Below, piece after piece: positions 10,620 through 60,937 of a stretch of DNA of 64,000 bases. How positions within the stretch are numbered: position 1 is the first letter of the stretch; the number at the start of each line of letters is the position of its first letter. Location of the stretch: positions 1,669 to 65,668 of the forward strand of contig CAZCGJ010000001.1 in assembly GCA_964498295.1 (NCBI GenBank), read 5' to 3'. A model generated the notes under the pieces. It had not been told where the DNA came from and did not search any database. It saw only the letters and a program-made list of their open reading frames with translations. Position numbers and translations under genes: made by a program. This DNA is from Candidatus Woesearchaeota archaeon. GTDB lineage: Archaea; Nanobdellota; Nanobdellia; Pacearchaeales; GW2011-AR1.

Positions 10620-10642
10620 ATTAAAATTAAATAAATATAGAA

Positions 10643-12706
10643 TTACTTTTTACTCTTTTTAGAAGATAACTTAACAACCTTAATTGGCTTTGCATTTGCT
10701 GCAGCTTTTCTCTTCTTAGCGATAATCCAATAAGCTAATCCAATAACAATTAAGAATACAATGATTCCTAAAGACCATCTTCCTGCTGTTGTACCAATTA
10801 CATTACCTGTAATTGTATTTACAAAATTAGGGCTATTTGTTTGATTGTTCAATTCAGTAGTATTTGAAGTATTAGTATTAGAGATAGTACATGTTCTTAA
10901 TTCTAATGGCTTATCAGTTCTAGGAGCGCAATAGTTAGTAGGATATGAACAAGTTCTTGTTTGAGAACCAGAGCTACATTCAGTCCATTCAGTACAAGAC
11001 CATTGAGTATTACATGTTCCACCGCCACCGCCACCGCCAGCAGCTTGAGGAATGATTGGTGAAACAGCTGCTTCAACTTCAAATTCTGCAAGCTTAGTTT
11101 TATTCAACAAATCATTTGAACTATAAAGAGACAAATATAAGGTATAATTACCTGCAACTAATCCAGTAGGAACAGAATAATTTGTAGGTACATCTGTAGA
11201 ATCATTAGCAGTGAAATTAAATTCATTTACAATAGTATTTCCATTATAAAGTTGGAAGTTTAAAACCAAAGGATAAACTTCAGAACTAACATTCACAGTA
11301 ACGTTATCTCCAGGTATTGTTTCATTGTCAGCATCATCTGTAACATTTGCAATAACAGAAGTATTCACATAAATAGTAACAGTAACATTCTCACTATTTT
11401 TATCTAAATCAGTAATATAATATGTAAAATTATCAACACCTACAAAACCATTGTCAGGAGTATAAACAAAACTACCATCGCCATCAACACTAAGAGACCC
11501 ATTTTGAGTTGAATTAATAACATCAATAAATAACACATCGTCATTTGCATCATTATCATTAGCCAAAATACCTAAAGAAGCACTAACATTCAATTTCTTA
11601 TTTAAAGAAGTATAATAAGAATCATTATTTGCAACAGGATCAGTATTAGTTCCTATAACAAAAATACACTTAGCAGAATCGCTTTTATGATGGTCAGTCA
11701 ATTCATAAACGAAATAATCAACACCATTTGTTTTATTAGAAGTATAATTGAAACTACCATTTACTGAAAAACCAGTACTTATTGTTTTTAACTTACCGAA
11801 TTTAACATTTTCAATAATAGATAATTCTAATTCATCTCCATCGAAATCACTATCATTAGCTAAAACACCAGTAGCATTTGTAGTATTTACAGAATCTATA
11901 ATAGCATATCTATCTTCAACTGCAACAGGAGCAGAGTTATTAAAACTTAAATAAGAGTAAACAGAAGAAAGACTGTTAGTATGACCGTCACTAACCAAAT
12001 AAGTAAAATAATCTACGCCATGAAAGCCATTATTTGCAACATAAACAAAAGAACCGTTTGACGTAAAGTTTAAAGTACCTTTTTTAGCAGTATTTACCAA
12101 AACAGCCCAAACAGAATCCCCGTCTTCATCCCTCGGATCAAAGATTACGGCACCATCCTCATCTAAATTAGACCAATTATAAATCTCCACATCATTCTTT
12201 AAAACACTCCTACTGTTTGAAATACTATAATAACTACCCACAACATAAGAAGAAGGTAAAATGTATAAGTCTCCTAAAATAGAAGGAGCATTATTTCTTA
12301 AACCCAAATAAGCAGTAGCAATTGAACTATTTGAGTTACCGTTAGTAACATAATAAGTAAAAGAGTCTACACCTGGAAAGCCATTATTTGCAACATAAAC
12401 AAAAGAACCGTTTGACGTAAAGTTTAAAGTACCTTTTTTAGCAGTATTTACCAAAACAGCCCAAACAGAATTTCCATCGTCATCTTTAGGTGCAAAAACC
12501 CATTCATCGGGATTAGATCTATCAAAAACATCAACATCATTCGTTAAAACACTCCTACTGTTTGAAATGTTATAATTATCCCCGTATACATAAGAAGAAG
12601 GCAAAGTATAAATGTCATTTTGAACAGATATCTCAGAAGCAGAAACCAAACTAACCAATAAAAAAATAGTTAAAGCAAAAATACAAGACAATTTATTGAC
12701 TGACAT
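10643..12706 (-). CDS. Cell-surface adhesin with a signal peptide, at least four cadherin-like/VCBS-type beta-sandwich repeats, a Gly7 tract, a Cys-rich module and a C-terminal TM anchor with a basic tail
   Basis: N-terminal signal sequence; repeated LANDSD..DGD...GSF.YTP..GF.G.D.FTY motifs; C-terminal hydrophobic helix followed by KKRK...KKSKK. Confidence 0.7.
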   Translation of the reverse strand: MSVNKLSCIFALTIFLLVSLVSASEISVQNDIYTLPSSYVYGDNYNISNSRSVLTNDVDVFDRSNPDEWVFAPKDDDGNSVWAVLVNTAKKGTLNFTSNGSFVYVANNGFPGVDSFTYYVTNGNSNSSIATAYLGLRNNAPSILGDLYILPSSYVVGSYYSISNSRSVLKNDVEIYNWSNLDEDGAVIFDPRDEDGDSVWAVLVNTAKKGTLNFTSNGSFVYVANNGFHGVDYFTYLVSDGHTNSLSSVYSYLSFNNSAPVAVEDRYAIIDSVNTTNATGVLANDSDFDGDELELSIIENVKFGKLKTISTGFSVNGSFNYTSNKTNGVDYFVYELTDHHKSDSAKCIFVIGTNTDPVANNDSYYTSLNKKLNVSASLGILANDNDANDDVLFIDVINSTQNGSLSVDGDGSFVYTPDNGFVGVDNFTYYITDLDKNSENVTVTIYVNTSVIANVTDDADNETIPGDNVTVNVSSEVYPLVLNFQLYNGNTIVNEFNFTANDSTDVPTNYSVPTGLVAGNYTLYLSLYSSNDLLNKTKLAEFEVEAAVSPIIPQAAGGGGGGGTCNTQWSCTEWTECSSGSQTRTCSYPTNYCAPRTDKPLELRTCTISNTNTSNTTELNNQTNSPNFVNTITGNVIGTTAGRWSLGIIVFLIVIGLAYWIIAKKRKAAANAKPIKVVKLSSKKSKK

Positions 12707-12709
12707 TTT

Positions 12710-13093
12710 TTAATTAGCCTCTGGAGAAAGATCTAGGCCAAAAAATCGTTTATTTCCAATCGCAGGTTCTTGAACACTAACATAATTTGTAGGATTTTGT
12801 CCAGAATACTTTAAAGACCTATTATCTTGCATAACGGAAGGTTTCCAAACAGCATTACCAGTAAGATTAGTAGTATAAACAACAGAATAAGTATTAGTAT
12901 TTGAAGAAGGAAGAGCAATATCCAAAATATAAGAACCATTCGGATAGCTTTTTTCAGGAGCAGAATAAGTTATACTTATAATTGAAGGCTTATTTGTTGT
13001 TACACTTGAAGTTTCATTTGTACTTGCAGCATAACCTGCAGAAGCTAACAAAGCTAATCCGCCACAAATTGCTGATCTTATTTTACTTGCCAT
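12710..13093 (-). CDS. Small secreted Ser/Thr-rich protein, co-transcribed upstream of the adhesin
   Basis: Signal peptide MASKIRSAICGGLALLASAGYAAS; 3-nt gap to the downstream adhesin gene. Confidence 0.45.
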   Translation of the reverse strand: MASKIRSAICGGLALLASAGYAASTNETSSVTTNKPSIISITYSAPEKSYPNGSYILDIALPSSNTNTYSVVYTTNLTGNAVWKPSVMQDNRSLKYSGQNPTNYVSVQEPAIGNKRFFGLDLSPEAN

Positions 13094-13145
13094 AAATAGT
13101 TCACAAAAATAGGGTATTTAAACCTTTCGGTATAGTCACTTTTAA

Positions 13146-15080
13146 GTGACATCAATAGAGCATATAACAAGCAAAGTTTATAACTATGAAAAAAAGCCAA
13201 ATACCAAAAAGATGGAAAATATTTTCAGTTCAAAGGAAGACACTCATGTTTTTGATTATCTTAAAATTTTAAAATCCCTAAATGAAATCCCGTTTCCAAT
13301 AGGAAAAACAACTTTAATAGACTTTTTAACCGGCGACTCAACAAACGCTTCAGTTTCAAAAAACAAACTAACAAGAAAAATAAATTTCAATAGTCTCAAA
13401 TTAACTAAAGACCAAACGAGAGAAATGATCGACGACATGATAAAACAAAGATTCGTTGAAGTCACAGGCACTCTTTCAAACCCATTTATTAAACTTTTAA
13501 GCTTAACATCAAAAGGACAAGCAGAACTTATTGCCCCTAAATATTATTTAAAGAAAACAGAAAAGCCAACCCTGGAGAAATTTGACATTAGCACAGAAGA
13601 AATATACGAATTTCAAGAGTTTGATAAATTCCTAGAAAACTTCAACGAAAATCAAAAGAAAGCAATAATCTCAAAAAATGAGAAAATAATGTGTATTGCT
13701 GGAGCAGGTTCTGGAAAAACAGCAGTCCTCACAAAAAGAATAGAATTCTTAATAAAACATAGGGGAGTAAATCCTTCAAAAATCCTAGCCATAACATTCA
13801 CAAGAAAAGCAAGACAAGAGATGAGAAATAGACTTCAAGAATTCGGAATCTCGACAAACGTTGAAACATTCAACTCATTAGGAGAACATATCCTCAACAA
13901 ATATGAAAATGAAATATATGGCAGGCCAATAAGATTAATTAGTACGGCAGATAAAATAACAATGATAAAAGAAGCCCTAGAAAGCCAAGGGAAAACACTT
14001 TTACAGGCTGTAGAGGAATACTTCACCCCTCAACAAAAAGCAAACAAAACTCCTGAAAGATTAATGTGGACTTTCATAAATGATTGTTTTACAATAATAG
14101 ATTACTTCAAATCGAAGAACACTCCAATCCCTGATTTCTCCAAAGATGCAGACACAAAACACTACTTGATTGCTTTAATGGTCCTAAGAACCTGTAACTA
14201 CGTTAAAACATATATGGAAACAGAGGGACTGAGAGATTTTTCAGACCAAGTTATTGACTCATTAAATTTCCTCAAAAAAAACCAAGACAGAGTCCCTAGA
14301 TTCGAACACATTCTTGTAGATGAATATCAAGACTTGAATTCTATGCAAGTAGATTTCATAAAACTACTAAACGCACCAAATATATTTGGAGTCGGAGATC
14401 CGAGGCAATCTATTTTTGGCTGGAGAGGCTCTGAAATAACACATATTACAAACTTCTCAAAAGAATATCCTGAATGCGAAGTCGTTCCTTTAGTTATGAA
14501 CTATAGAAGCACAAAAAGAATTGTAGAACTCATGAACTCTTCAATTAAACATCTTAAATTTCCAGATCTAGTTGCAAACAAAGAAAGTAAATCCCATGAA
14601 ATAGAAATAGAAAAATTTGAAACAGAAATGGACGAAATTCTTTCAGTACTTCAGAAAGTTCTAGAATCAAAATCTGAGAGACATGAGATATTTATTCTTG
14701 CAAGAACAAATAGGCAACTAGTAGAAATTTCAAAAATAATGAGAAATATGCAAATTCCTCACATTCTAAAAACAGAAGATGAAAATACACAGATAACTGC
14801 GAAAGAAGGAGAAGTAACTTTGGCAACAATCCACTCAATCAAAGGATTACAAGCAAAAGAAACTTTTGTAATTGGCTGCAACGTTCAAAACTTCCCTTGC
14901 AAGGCCTCAGATCACCCAATAATAGAAATGATCAAAATGGAAAACTACGACAAAGACGAAGAAGAAAAAAGATTATTCTACGTAGCAATTTCAAGAGCAA
15001 AAGAAAAATTATACCTTAGTTACTCCGGAACAAAAACAGACTATATAACTGACGAAATGGTTAAGATAATTAATGATTAA
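13146..15080 (+). CDS. UvrD/Rep/PcrA-family superfamily-1 DNA helicase with an N-terminal extension of about 150 aa
   Basis: Walker A CIAGAGSGKTAVL, motif Ia ILAITFTRKA, DEYQD (motif II), C-terminal helicase motifs (ATIHSIKGLQ, LFYVAISRAK). Confidence 0.75.
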   Translation: MTSIEHITSKVYNYEKKPNTKKMENIFSSKEDTHVFDYLKILKSLNEIPFPIGKTTLIDFLTGDSTNASVSKNKLTRKINFNSLKLTKDQTREMIDDMIKQRFVEVTGTLSNPFIKLLSLTSKGQAELIAPKYYLKKTEKPTLEKFDISTEEIYEFQEFDKFLENFNENQKKAIISKNEKIMCIAGAGSGKTAVLTKRIEFLIKHRGVNPSKILAITFTRKARQEMRNRLQEFGISTNVETFNSLGEHILNKYENEIYGRPIRLISTADKITMIKEALESQGKTLLQAVEEYFTPQQKANKTPERLMWTFINDCFTIIDYFKSKNTPIPDFSKDADTKHYLIALMVLRTCNYVKTYMETEGLRDFSDQVIDSLNFLKKNQDRVPRFEHILVDEYQDLNSMQVDFIKLLNAPNIFGVGDPRQSIFGWRGSEITHITNFSKEYPECEVVPLVMNYRSTKRIVELMNSSIKHLKFPDLVANKESKSHEIEIEKFETEMDEILSVLQKVLESKSERHEIFILARTNRQLVEISKIMRNMQIPHILKTEDENTQITAKEGEVTLATIHSIKGLQAKETFVIGCNVQNFPCKASDHPIIEMIKMENYDKDEEEKRLFYVAISRAKEKLYLSYSGTKTDYITDEMVKIIND

Positions 15081-46232: not shown

Positions 46233-49200
46233 TCAACCATGTTCAACACAAGAAATTCCGCCGCCTTCAAAAGTACAAGAATAACCTTCATCCCCCAACT
46301 CGAAGGCTTGTCCTTCAGTTACACCAATACTTGTTTTAGCACCATCTTTGTATAACCAATAATTACTACCTTCCATTCTAATAGAATATCCAGTATTATC
46401 GCTGCCTCTTAAAATATTATAGTTTGATCCGTCATTTAAAACAGAAAAATCTCCACTCGTAGAACTAAAAGTAGACGCAGTGCTAGCCCCAGTACCGGAA
46501 GTTCCAGAATTAGAAGCAGTAGAAGCATCAGCAGTAGCTCCTGAATTTGAACTACAAGAAATATCTTTTCCATCAAAGGTACATCTGTATCCTGCAATAT
46601 TATAAAATGGAGATCCTAGAATAACTTTTCCAATACGAGTATCGTCTTTGTATAAATCATAACTATTCTTGAAAATCCTATATGCTGTAGAGCTGCCTTT
46701 GTTCATAATCCTGTAATAACTACCAATGTCTTTTAGAGTAATATCTCCAGAACTACTAGAATCATCTAAAACAGAAGAGTCTAAACTAGGAGCACTTGAT
46801 CTCTGGCTAGAAGCAGATTTCTCTCCCTCTGAATCTTTAATATTTAAAATAGTTTTAACAACTTTAATATATAATTGAACTCTAAGATACAAAGCTTCTG
46901 CCTTATTAGCATCCAATTTTGCATTAGTATAAGCATCTGTCGCCATTCCCAAAACAGGAGAAAGAGCATTATCGATGCTAGATACTCCGCCTTTAACAAT
47001 AGCAGGACTTAAAGTCAACTTAGCAATACTCTTTTTTAAATCAGATAATTTTTCACTAGTCTTTTTCATATCATCTGAAACAACTCTCTCGCTACTATTT
47101 GCAGCCAAATATTCTATAGCTTCTGAAATACTACCTACTTTCTGTAAAACCTTCTGTGCATTCTGTACAGACTTATTATCTAACCAACAGGTCAAATTTT
47201 TACTTCCACAATAACCTACACTTTGCCAATTCTTAGAGTCTTTTCCAACACCAGGATTTTGTGTTGCACATATTCTTGTAATTCCTAAAAGAGAAACATC
47301 TGGATTAATTGCATTGTCTACTCCTTCCTGTACATTTGGATTCAATAATGAATAAATTGAAGAAGTACCAGATATACATTCGTCTTCTGTTGTAATGCCT
47401 CTCGCATTACCTTGTTCTTGCACATATAAATCATTAATAACATCTACAGCAAAATCAGTAGAAACAGAATTAAATCCACATTCTTCCTGATCGTTTACAA
47501 CCAAACACATTTGTTTATATCCGGAAGGTGCAGTAAAATCTTTAGTCTCGCTAGCCTGTTCACCCTTAGTCAAATATCCAGAAATAATATGCACTTGTGC
47601 AGGCATACTATAATAACTCAACGAAGGAGGATCTTTCAAGTAAACAGTATACGATGCGCCAATATCAGTACCGGCATAAATATGATAAAATACTTTATAC
47701 TGTGAAGTAGCTGGAACAGTTGCAGTTGTATAAGGTATAGAAGAGAAAGTACCATAGAATTGTGCAGGAGATTCTGGTTTCAACATAGACTCTATAGCCT
47801 CTGCAGAAGTAGGAATAGAAGTTCCCAAGAAATTTCTACAATATGTAGAACCTATTTCCTCTACATTTCCAAATTTATATGCCGTGAAAGAAGTAGATGC
47901 ATAATTATTTTTGAAATAATCAATGCTGCTTTGCATATTATCCCATGATTGTTGGAATGTTGCATATTCTCCACCATTAGCCTGTCCACCCCACTTAGCA
48001 GTATAAGCTAATTCTGCAAGACTAGGAATTATATTTTTCATAAGTGGAGAAACCTGTCTCCAGAAAAATTCACATTTGTAAACAGCAGTTATTTCATCAC
48101 AAATTCCTACGTGTTTTCCTGATTTTGAATATTCCGATAAACATTTCTGTTGTGCTTTTAATATAGAAATATAACCTTCAATACCTGCATGGATACCTGT
48201 TAAACAGACAGGCATATAAACATCTCCTCCAAATCCTACAAAGTTCTTCAAACACAAAACCGCACTCCCTAAAATACCTGATTGAATTACATTAGGAACA
48301 GCAATTTTTCCTCCAAAATTACATCTAGAAGTAGGGCATATTACAGGATCACAAACATTATACATAAACTTACATTCTTCAGGGCTAAAGAAATCTTGAC
48401 AAACGAAATTATTAGAACTTGCACCCATCATACCTGGCTCTACTTCAACATTATCTCCTACATTAGGAATACTAAACTTTCTTACACCACTCTTATAATT
48501 AGAAGCCACATATCTAATAGCTGTCTTAGCTCGAGAAATTAAATTTCTAATCTCGCTTGCCTGTATGCTACAACCACTAAATCCTTCAAAATTATTGTTA
48601 TTAGTATTGAAACTCTGACAAATATCGTCATTCATTCTTTGGTCCTCTCTACCATTTGGACCTACATTACATAAATACATGAAAGTCACTTCACCAGCAT
48701 CAGTATAGCCAGAAATAGCCTTTCCAGTTGTAATTGTACTTACAACATTACTTGCAGCAGTTGTTACAGTATTTCCTTGAGTTGAAGGAATATAAACGTA
48801 CCAACCTTCTTTCAAGTCTACAGGAACATATGCAGGCATACCTTTATCGTTTGCAGATTCATAGAATCTAACAGTAGGATTTGTATAATTATTTACACAT
48901 TTAATATTAGAAGTCATGTCTACATCCCATCTAGCAGTATCTCTATTATTTGGCAAACCAGTCAAGTCTGTTTTCAATAGTACATTACTGACTTGCTTAT
49001 TACTCAAATCAAAAGTATATGTACTTGCAACAGAACTACCACTACCTAATATGAGCAAATACCAAACTCCGCCAGAATTAGTTGTTGCAACACTTCTACT
49101 GCCCTCTCCCTCAAATTCTTTAACGGCAGAACCGAAAACATTTTTCAAAGTAGCCTTATCAATAGCAACGGAAGAAACAACTTTAACTTTATTATTATCA

Positions 49201-52076
49201 ATAATCGGTTTGAAGTAAGTACCTCTAATAGACTCTGGAAGTTCGCTCAAAGAAGTTTCATATCCCTTATTAGCCTCAGCATTCCTAGCAATATCATCTA
49301 GCTGTGCACTTGTATCAGCATTAATTTCAGATCTCAATCCTTCAGTAATAGTTGTAGAACCGCTCAAACGATTGTATAATAAACATTGTCTAGCCTCAGA
49401 CCAAGAATTAATTTGTTTTGCAGAAACAATTTGACCATTACTTGCTTTATACGAACAAGTACTCCCACTCTGGAATTCAGAAATATTCCCATGATATTGA
49501 TTTTTTATTTCATCATTAATGCCTTCTATCGCGCCAGTGTACGAATCAACATCTTTTGAAATATCATCTGAATAATGATTATAACAAACATCGACAGTAG
49601 GATAATTTCCAGCAGCTACTTCTTGTTTACATTTTACCTTATACACTTGCATAACTTCTTGTCTTGCAGTACTCTGACCAGTAAATCCAGTAATTAAATT
49701 CTTAACATTTAATGCTAATCCCGTAGCCAAACAAACTGCCTTCCAACCTTCAACAAGTTTTCCTAACTGAGCATTCTTTTCTTCCCATTTAGCAATAGTC
49801 TTGTTAAGCTCATCTGCTTGATCTTGAGCCTGCTCAGGACTAAGCTTGATTACTCTTTGTTCAATACCTATATTAAAAGTAAAATTTGCTTCAGAAGTTG
49901 TCTTCAATTCAGAAACAATACTCACATACGCATTCTTCTCAACTTGAACATCACTTAAATATAAACTATATGCCTCATTCTTTGTTGCACCACTACTCAA
50001 CTTTTTAGGTTCAATAACAGTATTAGAATCAGTACTATAGGAAAGCCTAAATGCGCCGTCCGACAAATAACTTACTTGTTTTCCGTCTTGCAATTTAGTA
50101 CTATAATATTCAAAAACTACTTCTTTTGAAGTAATAGTCTTGACAATTAAATAATCATTAGTATTCTTTGTTCCAGAATTAAGAGATAAATTAATTTGAT
50201 CCCCTTCATGCCACAAAATACTTCCAGTTTCATCAGGAACATTTTTGTTATTCATTACTAATTCAAAAGTTTTCGAACTGGAAGGTGCTGGTTTAAATTG
50301 AACAATACCAATAGTATGATATTCATTATTTGCAAAAACAGATTTGTATGCATTTGTAGAATCAGTTCTTTGAGCAATAGTTAACTGACTTCGAATACTC
50401 TCAGCCAAAGCAGAACTAGGATATAATTCTAAAAACTTATTCATTAGTTCAACTTTCTTAATATTATAGTCTAAACCTTTTTGCTGTAATCTTTTAGCAA
50501 GTTCTATTTCTTCAATCAATGCACTCTCACCATAATTTGTGCCTGTAGAATTAGATAAATAAGAATAATCATTTAATAATTCAGAAAGAACATTTTCACC
50601 TTCTTTGAAATAAGTAGATGCAAGCTCCTTATCTGATTGAGTAGTAGTTGTTTGAACATCTTCACCTTCGGTAGTTACAAGCCCTTTAAAAGAAATGCCT
50701 TTAACGGAATCTCCAGGCCTATCTCCGGAGAATAATATTTTAATGTTGCTTGCAGGAGCTTTTGTTGTATCAATACTATTTTTGAACTCGGTTAAAGTCA
50801 TAGCAACATCTCTTTTACTATTAAAAGTATTATAGACGTTCGCGGAAATTTCTGAATAAACTTTATTTTCCAAAGCAGATTCACTTTTAACCATCACAAC
50901 AAATTCAGTATCTGCAGATATACTCTCTATAGGTTTTTTTGTAACTCCTGCATACGCAAAATAATAGTTTCCTTCATCAGAAGGCACTCTGCTCGCCATT
51001 TCATAAGTACTCATAATATTTTGTGAATTAGTAACATTGGCTTTATACAAACTTAACAAACTTAAATCAAGAGTTTTTCCACCACAAGAAACCTTTACAG
51101 TTCCAGTATCTCCTGCAAGTACATTTAAGTTAGTAACTCTACAGCCAGTGTTACCGAGCTTAGTAGTTTTTCTTGCTTCCATTTGAACACCGTCAACACT
51201 TAAGATAACAGAATCTTCAGGAGAATCAATATCATTTAATTTAAGTTGAAGTCCAGCACGACAATAAAAACCTGGAAAATAAAATAATCCACCAGTCTGT
51301 CCACGAGTTAATGTTTCTGTTCTAATTTTTGCTCCATCCGGAGTCAAAACTTCAATAGTTGCTTGATCATTTTGAACATCAACAAGCCTAAGTACTCCTC
51401 TGCCTTGCCAAAAACCTTGCAGATATTTGCTCGATTCCCATTCATCATCACTCATTGTTCTTAAATAAAATTCAGAGCTACCAACACCAAATGCTTTTTC
51501 AGCATCATAATAAAGAGTAGCTGTTAAATTACCAGAAACATTTTTTGGAGAAGCAGTCTCATTGCTCTGTTTTTTTAAGATAATAACTACATAACCAATA
51601 TTATTTACAACAGGGCTGCCCAATAAAGTATTGTAACTATTCAAAGCAGCTCTAGCAGGATAATAACTAACGCCTGCAATTTCTGTAGGATATTTTCCTC
51701 TAAAAGAAATTGATTTTATAGAAGAAACTTTAATCAAGGGGTTTACTTTAGCAGATTCTAGTTGGCAGAAAACAGGAACGTTTTGTTCGGCAAGTAAATC
51801 AGATCTTACTACGCTAGGAGTACATCCCGAAGGAGGAATCATAACAAGAAAATCAGTATTTCCATAACAACGATTATTTGCAATATCATCTGCCAACTGA
51901 GGCCAGTAAGTATTAATATCTGTGGAAGAATAAACACTAGAAAGACTAGGATTAACATATTGATAATTAGTACTTCCAGAAAAAGAAGCAGTACCAGTAG
52001 GATTACTTAAGTCAGCACACACAAATCCTACTGAAAAAAACAAAACTGATAAAAATATTAAATTTAAATTTCTCAT
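46233..52076 (-). CDS. Giant (1947 aa) secreted/surface protein with a Ser/Thr/Ala-rich linker and two C-terminal Cys-containing repeats of about 60 aa
   Basis: Signal peptide MRNLNLIFLSVLFFSVGFVCA; no catalytic motifs; C-terminal repeats ...Y(R/S)I...Y.LYKD......G...G.....G(Y)xCTF(D/E)G..ISC. Confidence 0.6.
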   Translation of the reverse strand: MRNLNLIFLSVLFFSVGFVCADLSNPTGTASFSGSTNYQYVNPSLSSVYSSTDINTYWPQLADDIANNRCYGNTDFLVMIPPSGCTPSVVRSDLLAEQNVPVFCQLESAKVNPLIKVSSIKSISFRGKYPTEIAGVSYYPARAALNSYNTLLGSPVVNNIGYVVIILKKQSNETASPKNVSGNLTATLYYDAEKAFGVGSSEFYLRTMSDDEWESSKYLQGFWQGRGVLRLVDVQNDQATIEVLTPDGAKIRTETLTRGQTGGLFYFPGFYCRAGLQLKLNDIDSPEDSVILSVDGVQMEARKTTKLGNTGCRVTNLNVLAGDTGTVKVSCGGKTLDLSLLSLYKANVTNSQNIMSTYEMASRVPSDEGNYYFAYAGVTKKPIESISADTEFVVMVKSESALENKVYSEISANVYNTFNSKRDVAMTLTEFKNSIDTTKAPASNIKILFSGDRPGDSVKGISFKGLVTTEGEDVQTTTTQSDKELASTYFKEGENVLSELLNDYSYLSNSTGTNYGESALIEEIELAKRLQQKGLDYNIKKVELMNKFLELYPSSALAESIRSQLTIAQRTDSTNAYKSVFANNEYHTIGIVQFKPAPSSSKTFELVMNNKNVPDETGSILWHEGDQINLSLNSGTKNTNDYLIVKTITSKEVVFEYYSTKLQDGKQVSYLSDGAFRLSYSTDSNTVIEPKKLSSGATKNEAYSLYLSDVQVEKNAYVSIVSELKTTSEANFTFNIGIEQRVIKLSPEQAQDQADELNKTIAKWEEKNAQLGKLVEGWKAVCLATGLALNVKNLITGFTGQSTARQEVMQVYKVKCKQEVAAGNYPTVDVCYNHYSDDISKDVDSYTGAIEGINDEIKNQYHGNISEFQSGSTCSYKASNGQIVSAKQINSWSEARQCLLYNRLSGSTTITEGLRSEINADTSAQLDDIARNAEANKGYETSLSELPESIRGTYFKPIIDNNKVKVVSSVAIDKATLKNVFGSAVKEFEGEGSRSVATTNSGGVWYLLILGSGSSVASTYTFDLSNKQVSNVLLKTDLTGLPNNRDTARWDVDMTSNIKCVNNYTNPTVRFYESANDKGMPAYVPVDLKEGWYVYIPSTQGNTVTTAASNVVSTITTGKAISGYTDAGEVTFMYLCNVGPNGREDQRMNDDICQSFNTNNNNFEGFSGCSIQASEIRNLISRAKTAIRYVASNYKSGVRKFSIPNVGDNVEVEPGMMGASSNNFVCQDFFSPEECKFMYNVCDPVICPTSRCNFGGKIAVPNVIQSGILGSAVLCLKNFVGFGGDVYMPVCLTGIHAGIEGYISILKAQQKCLSEYSKSGKHVGICDEITAVYKCEFFWRQVSPLMKNIIPSLAELAYTAKWGGQANGGEYATFQQSWDNMQSSIDYFKNNYASTSFTAYKFGNVEEIGSTYCRNFLGTSIPTSAEAIESMLKPESPAQFYGTFSSIPYTTATVPATSQYKVFYHIYAGTDIGASYTVYLKDPPSLSYYSMPAQVHIISGYLTKGEQASETKDFTAPSGYKQMCLVVNDQEECGFNSVSTDFAVDVINDLYVQEQGNARGITTEDECISGTSSIYSLLNPNVQEGVDNAINPDVSLLGITRICATQNPGVGKDSKNWQSVGYCGSKNLTCWLDNKSVQNAQKVLQKVGSISEAIEYLAANSSERVVSDDMKKTSEKLSDLKKSIAKLTLSPAIVKGGVSSIDNALSPVLGMATDAYTNAKLDANKAEALYLRVQLYIKVVKTILNIKDSEGEKSASSQRSSAPSLDSSVLDDSSSSGDITLKDIGSYYRIMNKGSSTAYRIFKNSYDLYKDDTRIGKVILGSPFYNIAGYRCTFDGKDISCSSNSGATADASTASNSGTSGTGASTASTFSSTSGDFSVLNDGSNYNILRGSDNTGYSIRMEGSNYWLYKDGAKTSIGVTEGQAFELGDEGYSCTFEGGGISCVEHG

Positions 52077-53923
52077 CTAAAATTCAATTCGACGCTCGAA
52101 ACCTCCCATTGTGCATAATTAGCCTCTAAATCAGATATACTAGTCGGAGTTTTAAATGTAGGCACATCGATCCTTAATTCATTATAATTAGTTAATAATT
52201 CATCTGTAAAATAATCTTGCGTACTGCCTCCGCCAACTATAGCCGAATCAATACTTTGTGCAGGAATATCTAAATCAAAACATTTACTTTCTGTAGATCC
52301 AAATATACCTCCAATACTACTGGAAGGAACATCTAAACATTTTTGTTGTTTTATTCCAGCAAAACTTATAGAAGTATTTGAATAAACATAAGCAGTTACA
52401 TTATATTCTCCTTCTGCAAGTCTAACCACTTTATCTTCTGGATAACTAAATACAGAAGTATAATCATTTGAAGAGAAAACAATATTTGCTTTTCCTACAG
52501 AAGACATAGAAACGTTTATTGTATGTATTTTTTTCATCATAATATCTGCATTGTCTTCTCTATTAGTAGATATAATATATGATGATGAAGTATAATTTTC
52601 AGAATATGCATGTAATATTCCATTAACACAACTAGGAACATCTGCTATCAAATAAGACTCATCACTCGAAACTTTCTTTGTACTTCCCAAATCGCAAGTC
52701 TCATCTAAACAACTAAAACTTAATCTAGCTTCGATCGGATTCAAATCTAAATCAGTAGTACTTACTCTTACCTTCTTATCAGAATTTGCACAAATAACAT
52801 TATTATCAATAATTTCATCGCCCGTTAAAATTGCTTCTCTTGCCTGACTATTTTTGATTATGGCAACAACACCAAATTGAAATAAGTCATTTCCGTCGAA
52901 AAACTGAACCAAGACAGGGAACTTTATATCATAAACAAAATGATAAGGAACAAAACATAAACCAAACATACTAAGTCCTTGTTGAGTTCCTACAGGTTGA
53001 ACAACTTTATCCCCATACATCTGCACGCTTGTTGGCCAAGAGGAAGAATACATGAAGTTTACATTCTCATCTACTTTCTCACCTAAATCTACAACGAAAT
53101 AGGAATTTTTTTTATCAGATAAATCATAATAATTTCCAGCAACTTTTAAGAAAGCGATATTATCTTCCAAACCTAAAGAAATATTTCTTTTTGTTAAATC
53201 TTCATTAAACATTCTAGGAGAACAACCGAAATCAACACCCGTTACAGGAGCATACAAATACATAACATCCAAACCATATGCTTCTAAAAATCCGTCTGAT
53301 TTTTCTTTATCGTAAATCTTTGAAGCTAAATCATAAAACTTTCCAAGTTTAGATTTAACAGTTACTTCGTGTTTACTAACGGTAGCTGATTGATTTTCAA
53401 AAGTAATAAAAACAGGATTGTCTAAAGAAACATAGACGCTATCAGAATTTATATTAACATTTACAGAACCATCATAAATATCTACAAAAATCCCAGCACT
53501 ATTTAAAAAATCAAAATTACAATTATTTATTCCTTCATAAATAAATCGTGTTAATTCTTGATCCATTTCTTCAATAGTGGGTTTTTGTTCAACAATCATA
53601 TTATTTCCAGAAACAAACATCCAGTAAGGAACTGCACCACCGTAAAAATCTAATTGAGAAGAAGAAGGAGCATATGAACTACCAGGATAAAATTTTAATT
53701 CTTCAAGATAAAGATGTCCGCCTTGTTGACCTAATAAATTTATACCTAATTTTGCTCTATCAGAAATACAAGCTAAATATGCATCTTCTCCTTGCTTTAG
53801 TTCTTTTGAACCACCTGGTAAAGAAGTATTATTAATTAAGAAATATATTCCAATCGCAGCTACGACGAGAATTCCAATAATAATAAAAACAGTTACCTGA
53901 CCCCTCTTTTGTCTTTTAATCAT
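52073..53923 (-). CDS. 616-aa extracellular protein with an archaeal prepilin-type N-terminus, translationally coupled (ATGA) to the giant gene
   Basis: N-terminus MIKRQKRG|QVTVFIIIGILVVAAIGIYFLI; large Cys-containing ectodomain. Confidence 0.55.
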   Translation of the reverse strand: MIKRQKRGQVTVFIIIGILVVAAIGIYFLINNTSLPGGSKELKQGEDAYLACISDRAKLGINLLGQQGGHLYLEELKFYPGSSYAPSSSQLDFYGGAVPYWMFVSGNNMIVEQKPTIEEMDQELTRFIYEGINNCNFDFLNSAGIFVDIYDGSVNVNINSDSVYVSLDNPVFITFENQSATVSKHEVTVKSKLGKFYDLASKIYDKEKSDGFLEAYGLDVMYLYAPVTGVDFGCSPRMFNEDLTKRNISLGLEDNIAFLKVAGNYYDLSDKKNSYFVVDLGEKVDENVNFMYSSSWPTSVQMYGDKVVQPVGTQQGLSMFGLCFVPYHFVYDIKFPVLVQFFDGNDLFQFGVVAIIKNSQAREAILTGDEIIDNNVICANSDKKVRVSTTDLDLNPIEARLSFSCLDETCDLGSTKKVSSDESYLIADVPSCVNGILHAYSENYTSSSYIISTNREDNADIMMKKIHTINVSMSSVGKANIVFSSNDYTSVFSYPEDKVVRLAEGEYNVTAYVYSNTSISFAGIKQQKCLDVPSSSIGGIFGSTESKCFDLDIPAQSIDSAIVGGGSTQDYFTDELLTNYNELRIDVPTFKTPTSISDLEANYAQWEVSSVELNFR

Positions 53924-54215: not shown

Positions 54216-54482
54216 TTAGTGTTTACCACCAAGAACTTGTCCCCAATTCTCTTTAAGATATGCTACTTTGAAAGATTTCTTATCGAGCTTTGCTAAAATA
54301 CACAAATCACCAAAAAAATCCTCTGGAAGAGTTCTATTCTCGTTATAGTAGCTTTTAAGAGTTTGATAGTTAATTTTTAGGCCAAATTGTAACAGGCCAC
54401 GCAAAGAAGGAGAATTAATTCTTTCAACAACTAGATCTAAGAACTTTCTCTGATATCCTACTTTAAATTTTATTCTCGTCAT
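54216..54482 (-). CDS. Hypothetical protein (about 89 aa from the internal ATG; the ORF-caller start is a GTG inside a GC-rich hairpin region)
   Basis: ORF only; start uncertain. Confidence 0.3.
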   Translation of the reverse strand: MTRIKFKVGYQRKFLDLVVERINSPSLRGLLQFGLKINYQTLKSYYNENRTLPEDFFGDLCILAKLDKKSFKVAYLKENWGQVLGGKH

Positions 54483-54548
54483 CGTAATCTGGAGGCGCGC
54501 TTCGCGCAATATTTCACGCGACACTGCGCAACTATAGACATGGGAAAC

Positions 54549-56256: not shown

Positions 56257-56329
56257 AGCCTGCAGAGGGAATCAAACCCCCGACCCCAAGTTTACAAAAC
56301 TTGTGCTCTATCAGCTGAGCTATGCAGGC
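56257..56329 (-). tRNA. tRNA-Thr (anticodon TGT)
   Basis: Hand fold: acceptor GCCTGCA/TGCAGGC, D-arm GCTC-AGCTGATA-GAGC, anticodon stem CAAGT/ACTTG with loop TTTGTAA, T-arm GGGGG-TTTGATT-CCCTC. Confidence 0.8.
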
Positions 56330-56375: not shown

Positions 56376-57116
56376 TTAATCTTCACCAGTCATCGCTTTA
56401 GCAATCTTTTCTGCTGCTCTTGTTGCACTTTCTTGCCTAGCCAAAAGCTCCTTCTCTTTGCCTTCTTTATCAGACTTATTGACTTTCATCCTAATATATC
56501 TAGCAAAAACCTTAACTTCTTTAGAAAACTTAGACAAGAAAACTATTCCAACAACAAAAACCACAAAGGCAATTATTTTCATTATAGGCGATGTTAAAAA
56601 TTCAGTCAAATCTACTAACTTATTAGCTAAAAAAATAGAAAGGCCTTGGAAAACTCTAAGAAGCAACAATATTAGGAAAAAAGAAAGGGAAACCAAAATA
56701 GAAGTTGATTTAGAAAACATATCAAAATCATTCAAAACTTCATACGTAGTAAAATAATATTTTACTAGGAAAAACCAAATAACTAAAACAAGAATAAAAA
56801 ACAGAGAAAAAATAGGAGTCATACCTACTGCAAACTCAATAACGGGAGTAGTATATGGAGAAACCTTCCTATACCCTGAAATAACCTGCTTAAACCCTGT
56901 TTGATTTTCTAAAATTAATCCTAATTGCTTTTTAAGATAAGCATTACGTACATCCTCATTTGTTATAGTTGTTTTTGCAGTATCAACTTGAGAAGTAATA
57001 TTTTGCACTCTTTGATCTACTGAATTAAATTGCTGATCTATAGAACTAGTATCTATAGCTGAAACAAGCCCAACTAAGAATAAAACTGCGAAAATAAAAC
57101 ACCAACTCTTTTGCAT
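56376..57116 (-). CDS. Signal-peptide-bearing polytopic membrane protein with a charged coiled C-tail; distant member of the 56-61 kb paralogue set
   Basis: Cleavable-type N-terminus, 4-5 TM helices, Lys/Glu-rich C-terminal tail. Confidence 0.4.
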   Translation of the reverse strand: MQKSWCFIFAVLFLVGLVSAIDTSSIDQQFNSVDQRVQNITSQVDTAKTTITNEDVRNAYLKKQLGLILENQTGFKQVISGYRKVSPYTTPVIEFAVGMTPIFSLFFILVLVIWFFLVKYYFTTYEVLNDFDMFSKSTSILVSLSFFLILLLLRVFQGLSIFLANKLVDLTEFLTSPIMKIIAFVVFVVGIVFLSKFSKEVKVFARYIRMKVNKSDKEGKEKELLARQESATRAAEKIAKAMTGED

Positions 57117-57194
57117 AAAAAATAGAACAATACCGGATTTATAATCCTAACGAAATATCAATAAATATAAAAACTAAACAAGAGATAACCAGAC

Positions 57195-57773
57195 ATGAAA
57201 AAGAGACAGATATTTTTAATTTTGGTACTAACAGTTTTACTCCTTAATTTTTCACTCGCCGCCACACAAACATTACCAAAAAACACCTCAACAACAAACA
57301 CCCTATCTTCAAACCCTATAAGCTCATTTATGCAAAAAGAAATAAGTTCAGAAGCATTCAAAATAATCGGCGCTCCTGCGACAATACCTTTCCAAACCTT
57401 ACTAATTTATTTATTATTTATACTTATTGCATATATAATTATCACAGATTTATTGAACGGAGTCAGTTTATTTGATAAAAGTTGGTATAATTACACAATA
57501 GGATTAATCGTGGTCCTTTTGGGTGTCTATTCTGGTACAGCTTACAAGTTAATTTTAGCCTTTACAAAAATACAATTTACAAGTATTGCAGCAACAGGAG
57601 TAACATACTATATTATTCTAGGAATACTTGGAGCCTATTTACTAATAAGAACTTTTTTCAAAATAGTAAAAAGAAACAAAAGAACAAATGAAGAAAAGGC
57701 AGAAGAAAGAGCAGATAAAATACGACTTCTAAGAAAAGCACAAGACATAGAAGCAAGAGCCGCAGGAATCTAA
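57195..57773 (+). CDS. Signal-peptide-bearing polytopic membrane protein with a charged coiled C-tail (paralogue set)
   Basis: MKKRQIFLILVLTVLLLNFSLA signal, 3-4 TM helices, tail KRNKRTNEEKAEERADKIRLLRKAQDIEARAAGI. Confidence 0.4.
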   Translation: MKKRQIFLILVLTVLLLNFSLAATQTLPKNTSTTNTLSSNPISSFMQKEISSEAFKIIGAPATIPFQTLLIYLLFILIAYIIITDLLNGVSLFDKSWYNYTIGLIVVLLGVYSGTAYKLILAFTKIQFTSIAATGVTYYIILGILGAYLLIRTFFKIVKRNKRTNEEKAEERADKIRLLRKAQDIEARAAGI

Positions 57774-57838
57774 TATCTAAATATTAATAAATAAAAAAAT
57801 TAAATTCCCTTAAAATAAAAAGGGAAGAAAAAAATAAA

Positions 57839-57858
57839 AAACCTCGAAAACGAGGTTT
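57839..57858. terminator. Perfect 8-bp stem / 4-nt loop hairpin (AAACCTCG-AAAA-CGAGGTTT) between convergent genes, flanked by A/T runs; candidate bidirectional terminator
   Basis: Inverted repeat read directly; A-run upstream and T-run downstream. Confidence 0.3.
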
Positions 57859-57864
57859 GTAAAA

Positions 57865-58638
57865 TTAGTTCAAAAGATTTCTGAGAGATTTTATCTTCTC
57901 ATCGATTTTCTTAACTTCCTTAGCGTCGCCAGAAACAGCTGATCTAGCAGTTTCTAAATCTGCAATCTTAGCTAAAACTCTAGTCTTTTCTGTATCACTT
58001 ATACTTGTTGTAATTCTATCGTATTTAGCTTTTCTAAAGAATTTCTGTATTGTTCCATCCATTAAGAAAAGAACGATACATATAGCAACAATTGCTACAT
58101 AAACCCAATAGAAATTGCTCCAACTACCTGCATTAGACCAATTCCAAGATAGTAAAGAAATCATAACAACAGTATAAACAACCCAAAGGATCTTTCTAAC
58201 TGCTGAAGAAGAAGACTTTACAATAAGACTAGCTACAATTACAAAAGGAATTATCAAGAACAAAGAACCGACAAGTCCTTCCGAACCTACAGTAAATGCT
58301 CTTAATGCATCAACCGGAATAAATCTAACACCGATTAAGGCGATAATAACCGCAATACCCCAATTTATGAAAGACTTATCTCCAAATAGTTCGAATGGGG
58401 AAAGAATTCCACCAACAACTAAAAGAGTCAATATAAAAGCCATCCAAGAAACAAATGCATTATCTGCACTTGCAGAACTACCACTTCCAAAAAGAAGAGT
58501 AGTTATAGGGTTAAGTGCTGCAGTAACAGAAGTAATTCCACTTTGAACGCTATCTGCGAAAGACGCACTAGCAAAAGCAGTGCATAAAGCTATTGCAAAA
58601 ACACTAACGAAAAAGAAACTCAAAAATTTCTTATTCAT
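57865..58638 (-). CDS. Polytopic membrane protein paralogue with a conserved FLMDGTIQK box and coiled charged C-tail
   Basis: Start moved to MNKKFLSFFFVSVFAIALCTAFASA (signal peptide) preceded by GGAGGT; TM core, then ...LFLMDGTIQKFFRKAKYDR... Confidence 0.45.
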   Translation of the reverse strand: MNKKFLSFFFVSVFAIALCTAFASASFADSVQSGITSVTAALNPITTLLFGSGSSASADNAFVSWMAFILTLLVVGGILSPFELFGDKSFINWGIAVIIALIGVRFIPVDALRAFTVGSEGLVGSLFLIIPFVIVASLIVKSSSSAVRKILWVVYTVVMISLLSWNWSNAGSWSNFYWVYVAIVAICIVLFLMDGTIQKFFRKAKYDRITTSISDTEKTRVLAKIADLETARSAVSGDAKEVKKIDEKIKSLRNLLN

Positions 58639-58804
58639 ATTAAATAAACCTCCTTTCACATCTTTACAAAACCTATTCGATTTCATTAATTAATATAGCC
58701 CTCATGCCTTTATAAAATTTGTTGTTTTGAATTTTTATATCAACGATAACTCAAAATCACAAGATATTTAAATAAAACATTCTGATTAATAAAAAGGTGA
58801 TAAG

Positions 58805-59071
58805 ATGAAATCAATTATAGGATATATATTTGCAGCAGCAGGATTAGCAGTACTTCTAACAGCAACAAAAATATATTCTGCTTTAAGCGGAGTTTTTGAC
58901 ATAAAAATGCCAATGGTTATTATTGGAGGAGTTGGATTAATTTTAATCGGAATCATAATGTTAATGAACTCCTCAAGTAAAAGAGGAAAAGTCAGCCAAG
59001 CTGAAGAAGAAGTTCCAATATATGAAGGCGAAGGCAAAAACAGAAAAATAGTAGGCTATAGAAAAGAATAA
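58805..59071 (+). CDS. Small 2-TM membrane protein (88 aa)
   Basis: Two hydrophobic helices, charged C-terminus. Confidence 0.3.
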   Translation: MKSIIGYIFAAAGLAVLLTATKIYSALSGVFDIKMPMVIIGGVGLILIGIIMLMNSSSKRGKVSQAEEEVPIYEGEGKNRKIVGYRKE

Positions 59072-59088
59072 ATAAAAAATATTTTTAA

Positions 59089-59868
59089 TTAAGAAGTCAT
59101 TTTATACAATTTTTTCAACTGTTTCTCAAAATCAGCAATTCTTTTATCTCTGATTTCTGCAGGAATACCGCTAGCATTTCTAATATATTCATCTCTATCT
59201 TTCTGAAGTCTAACTATTGCATCCCAAATATTGTTCATTCCTGCCTGCTTAATCTTCTGCATAGTTAATGCTCTCCCAATCGTACCATCTAAAAGCAAGA
59301 AAATAAAGGCCATAAGCATAGTCCACATGTAAACATCTCCGTAGAAAGAATCATCCGCAGTAACATACAGCCCTAAATAAACACAGATGAATAAAATCCA
59401 ACCGATCTTTCTTATAATAGAAGTTTTACCCTCGCTAATGCCGTGCAAGAAGAATAAATAAATTATAAATGGTAAAACAGAAGTAATTGCAATCCCAAAT
59501 ACTTGATAAGTCATGATAATAGTATTAAGCCACGCATAATCGATGTATCTTACTGATAAAAGAGATACAATTACAGAAACAATTACAACAACCTTTCTAT
59601 TTTCATCACCTTTGAAAAAAGGAGCATTACGTAATGCAACAAAAACAATAGACAGAATTAAGATAAATATTAAAATTCTCTCAAACATCATATATCCAGT
59701 ATAATCATATCCTCCAAAGAAGAATTGCAAAACGGGTTGAGCTTGATAAATAGCACTATCAAGAGAACCAACAAAACCAAAGCGATAAGCAGATGCAAAA
59801 TTTACTACAAACAAAGATAAAAATAGAACTCCTGCAAAAAACAAAAACACCTTATTTTTATTAAACAT
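59089..59868 (-). CDS. Polytopic membrane protein paralogue (LLLDGTIGRAL box)
   Basis: Start moved to MFNKNKVFLFFAGVLFLSLFVVNFASA; shares the VLPFIIY(L/F)FF helix and DGTI box with 59903..60937. Confidence 0.45.
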   Translation of the reverse strand: MFNKNKVFLFFAGVLFLSLFVVNFASAYRFGFVGSLDSAIYQAQPVLQFFFGGYDYTGYMMFERILIFILILSIVFVALRNAPFFKGDENRKVVVIVSVIVSLLSVRYIDYAWLNTIIMTYQVFGIAITSVLPFIIYLFFLHGISEGKTSIIRKIGWILFICVYLGLYVTADDSFYGDVYMWTMLMAFIFLLLDGTIGRALTMQKIKQAGMNNIWDAIVRLQKDRDEYIRNASGIPAEIRDKRIADFEKQLKKLYKMTS

Positions 59869-59902
59869 ATTAATTAAGAGAGTATGAGATTTATAAACAT
59901 TA

Positions 59903-60937
59903 TTACAAGTTGTCAGCGTACTTACGTATAGCCTTTCTATCTTCTTCCCATGCTTTGTGAGCTGAAGCAGCATCTATAGCAGGAGTACCGCTACTTCCAC
60001 CATGCCCTAAGAAAGTAACTTGACCCTTGACATATTGTGCACCTGAAACGCCTGCAACAACATCATCGTATGCTCTTGCAAGTCTTTTTTCCAATTCATT
60101 TAACTCATGTAAAGCTTTAGCATTCTGTGATTCTTTTTGTCTTTCCTTTTTCCATCCATTCAAAATCTTTTGTATCGTTCCATCAATAAAACACATCAAA
60201 ACAGCAAGCATAGCAGTTAAAGGATATATTATACCAACTATCCCTTCTTGACCTTTTAACTCATCATACCTCATTATCCATATAGATAAGAAAACAACTG
60301 CAAAGAAAATCCATGCAACCTTTCTGAATACAGGAGATTTAGGTGCTCCCCATGTTTTTTCAACAAAAAAGAAATAAATAATAAAAGGCAAGACTGCAGT
60401 TATTACAATTCCAAAAGTAGTATAAGGTACTAAAATAGTTTGAATCATTTCAGGAGTTAAAAATCTTACAGCAAGAATTGCTACAATAGAACTTACTACC
60501 CAATGAGCTGCACCCTCTTTTAAAAGATCAACGCCAGAACTCTTAAAAGTAGTTGAAACAAGAGCCAAAACTAAAATAAGTAATAATATTTTAGCCAAAA
60601 ATATATTAGTAGAAAGATCAGGATCAGCAGACACATCAGCTGTTGCACCAACTAAATAACTCAAAGGAGTTTTAAGAACTTCATAAACACTAGTAATCAA
60701 TCCAGAAACCATCTCCACAATAGGTTTGAAAGCCTCCCCAGTACCGGTAGCAAAACCAGTAATTGCATTTCCAGTCATTCCTTTATATGCAAAAAATAAA
60801 ACAGCAAGCAAAACTAAAATACCTAAAGCCCACCAAATCCAAGATGAACAGCACTTACTAGCTTTCTTCTCAACAACTTTTGAAACAGACTTACTAGAAA
60901 CAACCTTCTTTTTCTTAATCATCTTCTTTTTTGGCAT
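59903..60937 (-). CDS. Polytopic membrane protein paralogue (CFIDGTIQKIL box) with a basic N-terminal segment and coiled C-tail
   Basis: Shares the VLPFIIYFFF helix and DGTIQK box with its two neighbours. Confidence 0.45.
   Translation of the reverse strand: MPKKKMIKKKKVVSSKSVSKVVEKKASKCCSSWIWWALGILVLLAVLFFAYKGMTGNAITGFATGTGEAFKPIVEMVSGLITSVYEVLKTPLSYLVGATADVSADPDLSTNIFLAKILLLILVLALVSTTFKSSGVDLLKEGAAHWVVSSIVAILAVRFLTPEMIQTILVPYTTFGIVITAVLPFIIYFFFVEKTWGAPKSPVFRKVAWIFFAVVFLSIWIMRYDELKGQEGIVGIIYPLTAMLAVLMCFIDGTIQKILNGWKKERQKESQNAKALHELNELEKRLARAYDDVVAGVSGAQYVKGQVTFLGHGGSSGTPAIDAASAHKAWEEDRKAIRKYADNL

Follow-up and report, generated by a model that had tools for sequence, protein, structure and literature searches.

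A conserved gene module of paralogous membrane proteins in Woesearchaeota/Pacearchaeota-type archaea

The stretch of DNA analysed here, referred to below as the window, comprises 64,000 nucleotides from a Candidatus Woesearchaeota archaeon (GenBank assembly GCA_964498295.1, contig CAZCGJ010000001.1, positions 1,669 to 65,668 of the forward strand); it has a G+C content of ~31% and contains six tRNA genes. Between positions 56376 and 60937 it carries six genes for membrane proteins, denoted here A, B, C, S, D and E in the order of their coordinates. They represent a real and well-defined protein family and gene module, which is widespread in Woesearchaeota/Pacearchaeota-type archaea and has no detectable relative of known function. 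As judged from sequence and profile comparisons, A, B, C, D and E evidently belong to one superfamily with "long" forms (C, D and E) and "short" forms (A and B). The features are listed below (aa, amino acids; TM, transmembrane; ecto, extracellular).

56376-57116, minus strand: A, 246 aa; short form; after the signal peptide (..LVSA/I, the slash marking the cleavage position) it has a helical ecto segment of 75 aa, then three TM helices and a charged tail
57195-57773, plus strand: B, 192 aa; short form in which a signal peptide and an ecto segment precede three TM helices and a tail rich in K, E and R
57865-58638, minus strand: C, 257 aa; long form of a third (C-type) orthogroup, with a signal peptide, an ecto amphipathic helix, five TM helices, a DGTIQK box and a 60-aa helical tail
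58805-59071, plus strand: S, 88 aa; two TM helices and the conserved cytoplasmic C-terminal motif EEVPIYEGEGKNRKIVGYRKE; convergent with D
59089-59868, minus strand: D, 259 aa; long form of the D-type orthogroup, with a signal peptide (..NFASA/Y), an ecto helix, five TM helices, a DGTIGR box and a charged tail
59903-60937, minus strand: E, 344 aa; long form of the E-type orthogroup; a K-rich N-terminus in the cytoplasm is followed by a TM anchor, an ecto segment, five TM helices, a DGTIQK box and an 85-aa helical tail

The five larger genes had been placed at these coordinates by a first-pass annotation of the window, and the motifs quoted there are indeed present, both in the helix with the Pro-Phe pair, or PF helix (VLPFIIYLFF in D, VLPFIIYFFF in E, IIPFVIV in C), and in the DGT box (FLMDGTIQKF in C, LLLDGTIGRA in D, CFIDGTIQKI in E); the strand of B is corrected here to plus. 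Two small membrane open reading frames (ORFs) had been described as interleaved with these genes, but S is the only one backed by conservation; the minus-strand ORFs at 58786-59037 and 57158-57361 overlap S and B, respectively, in antisense. The starts originally proposed for C and D agree with the lengths and N-termini of their orthologs. The ATG of C at 58638 has a GGAGG sequence 9-13 nt upstream, and the start of D at 59868 is consistent with ortholog lengths of 258-260 aa, the longer ORF extending to 59973 being one that would overlap E. Orthologs of E are 332-345 aa long and begin with MPKKK.

Analysis of hydropathy and charge shows that C, D and E are built alike. The N-terminal signal peptide, which in E is a K-rich signal anchor, precedes an ecto segment (30-60 aa) and five TM helices; the cytoplasmic tail, 58-85 aa in length, has a high content of K, R and E. 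The long forms have the N-terminus outside and the C-terminus inside, a topology that fits the positive-inside rule once the signal peptide has been cleaved. The same analysis confirms the architecture initially described for A and B (signal peptide, three TM helices, charged tail) and identifies in S a charged tail after the two TM helices. In E-type proteins the Lys-rich N-terminal segment and the TM helix are followed by the motif GM(T/S)GNVI(T/S)G (window positions 60760-60800, E residues ~47-60). In another genome (locus L035, 12739-13212) we observed this motif also in an unrelated membrane protein, which is thioredoxin-like and has the motif after its N-terminal TM helix; the motif may represent a lineage-specific signal-anchor or processing motif.

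The relationships among the five larger proteins were assessed at two levels. In an all-versus-all BLASTP comparison D and E match each other with 80 bits (31% identity over 167 aa), C and E with 48 bits, and C and D with 37 bits; B exhibits a marginal match to C (27.7 bits) and A has no match at all. The family hidden Markov model (HMM) selects exactly C, D and E among the 311 six-frame ORFs of the window, with E-values from 1e-131 to 5e-65. The paralogy of C, D and E, which the first-pass annotation had suggested, is thus borne out by BLASTP, by the family alignments, and by the shared PF helix, DGT box and helical charged tail. For the short forms we built alignments from related loci, namely A-like and B-like ones and two further groups, termed Bl and A2, and compared them with hhalign. 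Because hydrophobic helices inflate hhalign scores, every comparison was rerun with one of the profiles reversed. The probabilities obtained were 99.0% for A versus A2, 98.0% for A versus Bl, 95.3% for A versus B, and 93.7% for Bl versus B, while the long family matched A with 97.0% (reversed control 1.5%), Bl with 95.6%, and B with 93.9%. All reversed controls remained at or below 5%, and at or below 3.3% for the comparisons involving B and for those of the long family with A, Bl and B. A second run, with a family alignment of 150 sequences against an A alignment of 26 sequences, gave 95.6%, and B matches two of the HMMs, that of the family (2.6e-8) and that of A (2.3e-10). On the grounds of the hhalign probabilities of 94-99% with reversed controls of at most 5%, and of the match of B to the family HMM, we assign A and B to the same superfamily as C, D and E. 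The possibility that the shared motifs are compositional coincidences, raised along with the initial proposal, is contradicted by the significant BLASTP matches for C, D and E and by the reversed controls for A and B. The region common to long and short forms runs from an ecto P..(L/F)FG loop through TM1 and a cytoplasmic F..(D)KsW loop to TM2; the short forms retain only this N-terminal module, complemented by one more TM helix and the tail.

An exhaustive HMM search of 1.84 billion cluster representatives (clusters at 50% identity) revealed 1785 clusters of the family at E ≤ 1e-3 and 599 at E ≤ 1e-30; a word-indexed sequence search returned few matches, none of them annotated. Relatives of the module genes were found only in metagenome-assembled genomes labelled Woesearchaeota, Pacearchaeota, Nanoarchaeota or just "archaeon". 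The best 150 members of the family are 226-363 aa long (mostly 255-295 aa), and their alignment (residues numbered as in C) reveals conservation of the signal-peptidase site VSA at 19-21 and of P44, G51, K64, P118 and R166, together with R105 (97%), P131 (99%), F132 (91%), R148 (95%), W152 (100%), Y180 (100%), D194 (97%), G195 (91%) and T196 (90%). A Lys residue is present at the outer end of TM1 in 74% of the members, and an Arg in the middle of TM1 is absent. The resulting signature of the long forms, i.e. VR[FY] at the end of TM2, P-F in TM3, R-K..W at TM4, Y in TM5 and D-G-T after TM5, is found in C, D and E alike. The region from TM2 to TM5 and the DGT box are the most conserved parts of the alignment and the ecto helix and the tails the most variable ones; by this measure the TM core is evidently under purifying selection.

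Structural models were calculated with AlphaFold2 (AF2) for C (150 sequences; predicted local distance difference test score, pLDDT, 88.6) and for E (19 sequences; pLDDT 66, i.e. a weak model). The model of C is all-helical: the signal-peptide helix (3-23) and an amphipathic ecto helix (25-50) are followed by TM helices 58-79, 89-105, 109-140, 145-168 and 173-192, and by cytoplasmic helices 196-234 and 239-256. TM1 and TM2 are connected by a loop of 9 residues without a hairpin. The N-out/C-in topology places R105 and R166 where the membrane borders on the outside, and R148 and D194-G195-T196 where it borders on the cytoplasm. Foldseek searches with the C model yielded a best E-value of 1.2 against the PDB and 0.19 against BFVD (TM-score ≤ 0.35), and those with the E model a best E-value of 0.12 against the PDB (TM-score 0.19).

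To delineate the module, we compared its neighborhood among genomes. In a close metagenomic relative (L001, a 99-kb contig) all six genes have 1:1 orthologs in identical order, namely GINS, E, D, S (on the opposite strand), C, B (on the opposite strand), A, NDK, S3Ae, L44e. The identity to these orthologs is 67% for A, 68% for B, 82% for C, 44% for S, 53% for D and 56% for E, while the flanking housekeeping genes are 80-100% identical. A scan of one genome per GTDB species with the E-type alignment as the query revealed 34 loci, all from different assemblies; hence, there is one locus per genome, and no dispersed expansions are seen. All ORFs of 35 loci were then scanned with an HMM of each group. 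Two to four long forms are present in tandem in 34 of the 35 loci, at least one short form in 28, and S adjoins the module in 23; across all loci the numbers range from one to four for the long forms and from zero to three for the short forms. Most commonly the genes follow the order [b] [a<] [L<] [L, E-type >] [L, D-type >] [s<], and an E-type gene followed in tandem by a D-type gene is found in all but one of the 35 loci, in genomes of Woesearchaeota, Pacearchaeota and Nanoarchaeota. The A-type cluster (28 members) covers 24 sources, i.e. 23 of the 35 loci and the window; orthologs of B are present in L001 and L006.

The surroundings of this gene set are not constant. In most genomes (L007-L038, e.g. 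L017, 3124-6000, and L037, 5597-6901) the order is PolB, FEN1, the module, a Trm5/TYW2 methyltransferase, a HerA-like DUF87 ATPase (435-870 aa) and a thioredoxin-like membrane protein, and the DUF87 ATPase, a member of the HerA/VirB4/FtsK superfamily, is located 1-4 genes from the module in 17 loci. In the lineage of the window (the window, L001, L005 and L006) the module is located between GINS and NDK instead. PolB (7143-9509, minus strand) and FEN1 (9585-10619, plus strand) of the window are 47 kb away from the module, and tblastn of the window detected neither a DUF87/HerA-like ATPase nor a Trm5/TYW2 methyltransferase. Since the flanks differ and the composition is kept, the six membrane genes must have moved as a block, and the gene set has been co-inherited as a unit through at least one relocation. 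We also considered a functional link of the module to the DUF87 ATPase, Trm5/TYW2, FEN1 or PolB, but regard it as less likely and read the association as inherited housekeeping synteny, given the distance of PolB and FEN1 and the failure to find the other two in the window.

The small protein S belongs to a family of its own, with at least 1083 clusters at 90% identity, all of them unannotated proteins of ~80-95 aa from Nanoarchaeota/Pacearchaeota-type archaea. Comparison of 22 S proteins defines the motif as EVPIYxG, an optional EGKxR, and K[IV]VGYRR, with P71, I72 and Y73 invariant. The C-terminal motif is 76-90% identical to that of orthologs versus 36-45% for the TM part, which is the reverse of the pattern in the long forms. 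Among the proteins of the window and of the fetched loci the motif was found in S alone. Searches of Pfam with the 22 proteins yielded no match above threshold, the best family being DUF7269, matched by 5 of them with a best E-value of 0.011, and a profile search of PDB sequences with S yielded no match beyond coiled-coil noise. In one locus (L016, ~9800-13500) a 1045-aa ORF separates the D-type gene from S; in the others the pair is adjacent.

We clustered 98 long-form sequences, i.e. 95 from the loci and C, D and E. An E-type clade, comprising mostly the first gene of the tandem pair, is separated from a D-type clade, comprising mostly the second, and the C-type and other groups of third members are placed outside both. 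Of the 46 genes that belong to two-gene arrays, ~40 have their nearest relative from another genome at the matching array position. This positional orthology of E- and D-type genes implies that the duplications predate the divergence of the sampled lineages, and ancient duplication, with one positional ortholog per type per genome, is thus shown. Our findings contradict the proposal of the first-pass annotation that the family has been locally amplified, for which the 1:1, same-order orthologs in L001, the nearly universal E-D tandem and the positional matches leave little room. They also contradict the notion of a diversifying family, insofar as the fastest-changing parts are the cytoplasmic tails and not the extracellular segments, and the core from TM2 to TM5 and the DGT box are conserved best. 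The tails are only 17-47% identical to those of the L001 orthologs (E 21%, D 33%, C 47%) and are the least conserved segments of the long forms, whereas the ecto segments (E 58%, D 71%, C 94%) are similar to the TM core or above it; with respect to the more distant L006 the ecto segments are 32% (E) and 39% (C) identical.

Further genes and elements in the neighborhood deserve mention. Around the module the window encodes ribosomal proteins L44e and S3Ae, NDK, a GINS51-like protein, FtsY and a TerC/DUF475 protein. The gene for tRNA-Thr(TGT) (56257-56329, minus strand) is located 46 bp downstream of A on the same strand, so that co-transcription is possible. Between the convergent genes C and B (57790-57860) there is a short G+C-rich inverted repeat, CCTCG AAAA CGAGG, between A/T runs, which may be a bidirectional terminator-like element. 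A conserved small hypothetical protein of 102 aa without a Pfam match (54216-54524, minus strand), whose ORF adjoins tRNA-Val and L44e, has a syntenic counterpart of 88 aa in L001, with 90% identity. At a distance of 2.5 kb from the module there are two abutting minus-strand ORFs of 1947 aa (46233-52076) and 616 aa (52073-53923), neither of which matches a Pfam family at E ≤ 1e-3; conserved counterparts of the 616-aa protein are present in L001 (80%) and L005 (53%). These are presumably the "surface-protein loci" to which the first-pass annotation had linked the membrane proteins. We find no basis for such a link: the adjacency is confined to the window, L001 and L005, and elsewhere the module is mostly located between FEN1 and Trm5/TYW2.

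The initial statement that the family was not recognised turned out to be accurate, as it falls outside every curated family of Pfam, NCBIfam, PADLOC and PHROGs. The matches of all six proteins in Pfam are below the gathering score, the top one being that of D to SpoIISA_toxin (17.6 bits versus a cutoff of 27), and those in NCBIfam are far below the cutoff; among the 150 family members no Pfam family was matched by more than 4. A SpoIISA-type membrane toxin was rejected on these grounds, as the weak match recurs in 3 of the 150 members and extends over the TM helices only, and the genes are chromosomal, single-locus and vertically conserved. PADLOC gave no matches and PHROGs a single one (E = 0.006), i.e. 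there is no indication of a defence-system or phage family. A profile search of PDB sequences with the family (E-values up to 1) returned coiled-coil noise only. Among the viral contigs of IMG/VR we found no relative of the family and hence rejected a viral or mobile origin.

The best reading of these data is that the six genes encode subunits of one lineage-specific integral-membrane module of Woesearchaeota/Pacearchaeota-type archaea (Nanoarchaeota in GTDB). Because the genes are kept together and each type is represented by one ortholog per genome, we propose, with the chances for and against evenly balanced, that the proteins form a hetero-oligomeric complex of the cytoplasmic membrane. 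The tails and the S motif would act on its cytoplasmic side, and its role would be constitutive housekeeping in the envelope. The paralogs would assemble side by side, and their tails, perhaps with the S motif, would bundle or dock on the cytoplasmic face. The core from TM2 to TM5, with its arginines and aspartate at the membrane boundaries, could form a conduit or a lipid-facing groove. An envelope role is plausible, and it would consist in transport, insertion or envelope anchoring rather than in variable host recognition. Several observations weigh against this proposal. No homolog of known function ties the family to a specific activity, and there is no conserved His, Cys, Ser or Glu residue that would suggest catalysis. 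The genes do not form one operon: their orientations alternate, and an AT-rich region of its own precedes every gene. D, E and S are only 44-56% identical to their L001 orthologs versus 80-100% for the neighbours, and therefore evolve faster than core genes. Finally, L034-L036 have only one to three long forms in the vicinity of FEN1 and lack both A and S within 5 kb, which implies either that the subunits are not strictly inseparable or that the partners are encoded elsewhere in those genomes.

The lack of an operon and the variable composition of the module would be expected also if the paralogs were functionally independent, each forming its own homo-oligomeric channel or transporter (e.g. 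for a small solute, or of the mechanosensitive type, with C-terminal helices bundling as in MscL), their adjacency being inherited synteny. For each gene a putative promoter can be indicated, B exhibits a weak, sub-threshold match to MscL (E = 0.0012, 18.9 bits versus a cutoff of 180), and MscL, too, is generally laid out as TM helices followed by a charged helix at the C-terminus. We nevertheless regard this explanation as rather unlikely: E- and D-type genes have been strictly paired in a fixed order since before the divergence of the lineages, as would sooner be expected of obligate partners, the module has changed its location as one unit, and relationship to MscL was rejected, as the match of B is far under the threshold and no long form among the 150 members matches Pfam MscL. 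Still less probable, in our opinion, is the view of the first-pass annotation, by which the family was amplified locally, is diversifying and serves the envelope or host interaction in connection with the giant surface-protein genes next to it. It could draw on the exposed N-terminal ecto segments, on the two large ORFs nearby and on the faster evolution of D, E and S in comparison to their housekeeping neighbours, as well as on the presumed symbiotic lifestyle of DPANN-type archaea, whose lineage-specific families are often membrane-bound or extracellular according to the available text of PMC8204110 and PMC9258230. As described above, however, the duplications are ancient with positional orthologs kept 1:1, the cytoplasmic tails rather than the ecto segments vary most, the adjacency to the large ORFs is limited to three members of one lineage, and each genome has a single locus.

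That the family is a very remote member of a known machinery, either a YidC/Oxa1-type insertase or a VirB6/TrbL/CedA-type conduit, we consider highly improbable, even though the topology is that of Gram-positive YidC and the HerA/VirB4-superfamily DUF87 ATPase is close to the module in a number of genomes. Comparison of the family profile with Bacillus subtilis SpoIIIJ (a query sequence validated against PDB 3WO7, E = 2.7e-71) gave an hhalign probability of 1.2%. The PDB profile search described above retrieved no chain of YidC, Oxa1 or VirB6, Foldseek retrieved no YidC chain, and no match to Pfam 60KD_IMP or TrbL was found in the 150 members. A YidC fold is contradicted also by the short TM1-TM2 loop of the AF2 model, which leaves no space for a YidC-type hairpin, and by the lack of an Arg residue in the middle of TM1. 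The Foldseek match to TrwI/VirB6 (7o3v_F) has E = 2.3 and a TM-score of 0.11, and no DUF87/VirB4-like ATPase was detected in the window, where the module has moved away from it. Returning to the hetero-oligomeric complex, we would tentatively take it one step further, as a possibility that we consider less probable than not: five anciently diverged paralogs of a new helical fold, with a small motif-bearing partner, may constitute an undescribed multi-subunit membrane machine for an essential envelope task that these symbionts with reduced genomes solve differently from other archaea. Candidate tasks would be the uptake or flipping of scavenged lipids, the insertion or export of envelope proteins, or the anchoring of the envelope to a cytoplasmic scaffold.

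Few uncultivated archaea are as abundant as Woesearchaeota and Pacearchaeota; their genomes are tiny, and much of what sets them apart consists of unannotated membrane protein families (PMC8204110, PMC9258230). TM helices and signal peptides have been reported to be overrepresented in lineage-specific hypothetical proteins of archaea (Méheust et al. 2022, PMC9258230), and the family described here probably belongs to such lineage-specific sets of unannotated membrane proteins. The available text of Castelle et al. (2021, PMC8204110) describes "Module 98", a set of 51 protein families common to Woesearchaeota and Pacearchaeota, mostly of unknown function and many of them membrane-bound or extracellular. 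Our family has the same range and is likewise unannotated and predicted to be membrane-bound; Module 98 is made up of anonymous family numbers, to which the proteins of our module could not be mapped. Literature searches revealed no description of the family, and the relationship within the superfamily, the tandem orthogroups, the S partner and the gene order have been worked out here, with no such description in the available text of PMC8204110. As a result, five "hypothetical proteins" and a small ORF become a defined object, with a superfamily, fixed conserved residues, a confident monomer model, a motif-bearing partner and a gene order. If the complex should prove to be an essential envelope machine, it would have implications for the way in which DPANN cells build their membranes and supply them; if not, an ordinary lineage-specific membrane family has been correctly described.

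Comparison with known systems reveals likenesses at the level of architecture. Gram-positive YidC/SpoIIIJ proteins possess a cleaved signal peptide, an extracellular amphipathic helix, five TM helices and a basic cytoplasmic C-tail, and the overall topology of the long forms matches that of the YidC/Oxa1/SpoIIIJ insertases; the long forms differ in lacking the C1 cytoplasmic hairpin between TM1 and TM2 and in their conserved residues. VirB6/TrbL are polytopic membrane proteins with a signal peptide, and tandem virB6 paralogs occur in Rickettsiales. Like VirB6, TrbL and CedA, the module comprises diverged, signal-peptide-bearing polytopic proteins, arranged here as tandem paralogs, but there are no VirB4, VirB2 or coupling-protein genes in the window, and the DUF87 ATPase of other genomes is not linked to the module here. 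MscL has two TM helices, no signal peptide, and a charged C-terminal helix that bundles. Our family is similar in that its TM helices precede a charged helix in the cytoplasm with the potential to bundle, whereas B has a signal peptide and three TM helices. Although it is an analogy only, with no detected similarity of sequence or fold, the FliP/FliQ/FliR export gate and the paired small multidrug resistance (SMR) transporters follow a logic similar to that of the module, i.e. paralogous small membrane subunits of differing length, encoded side by side with one copy per type.

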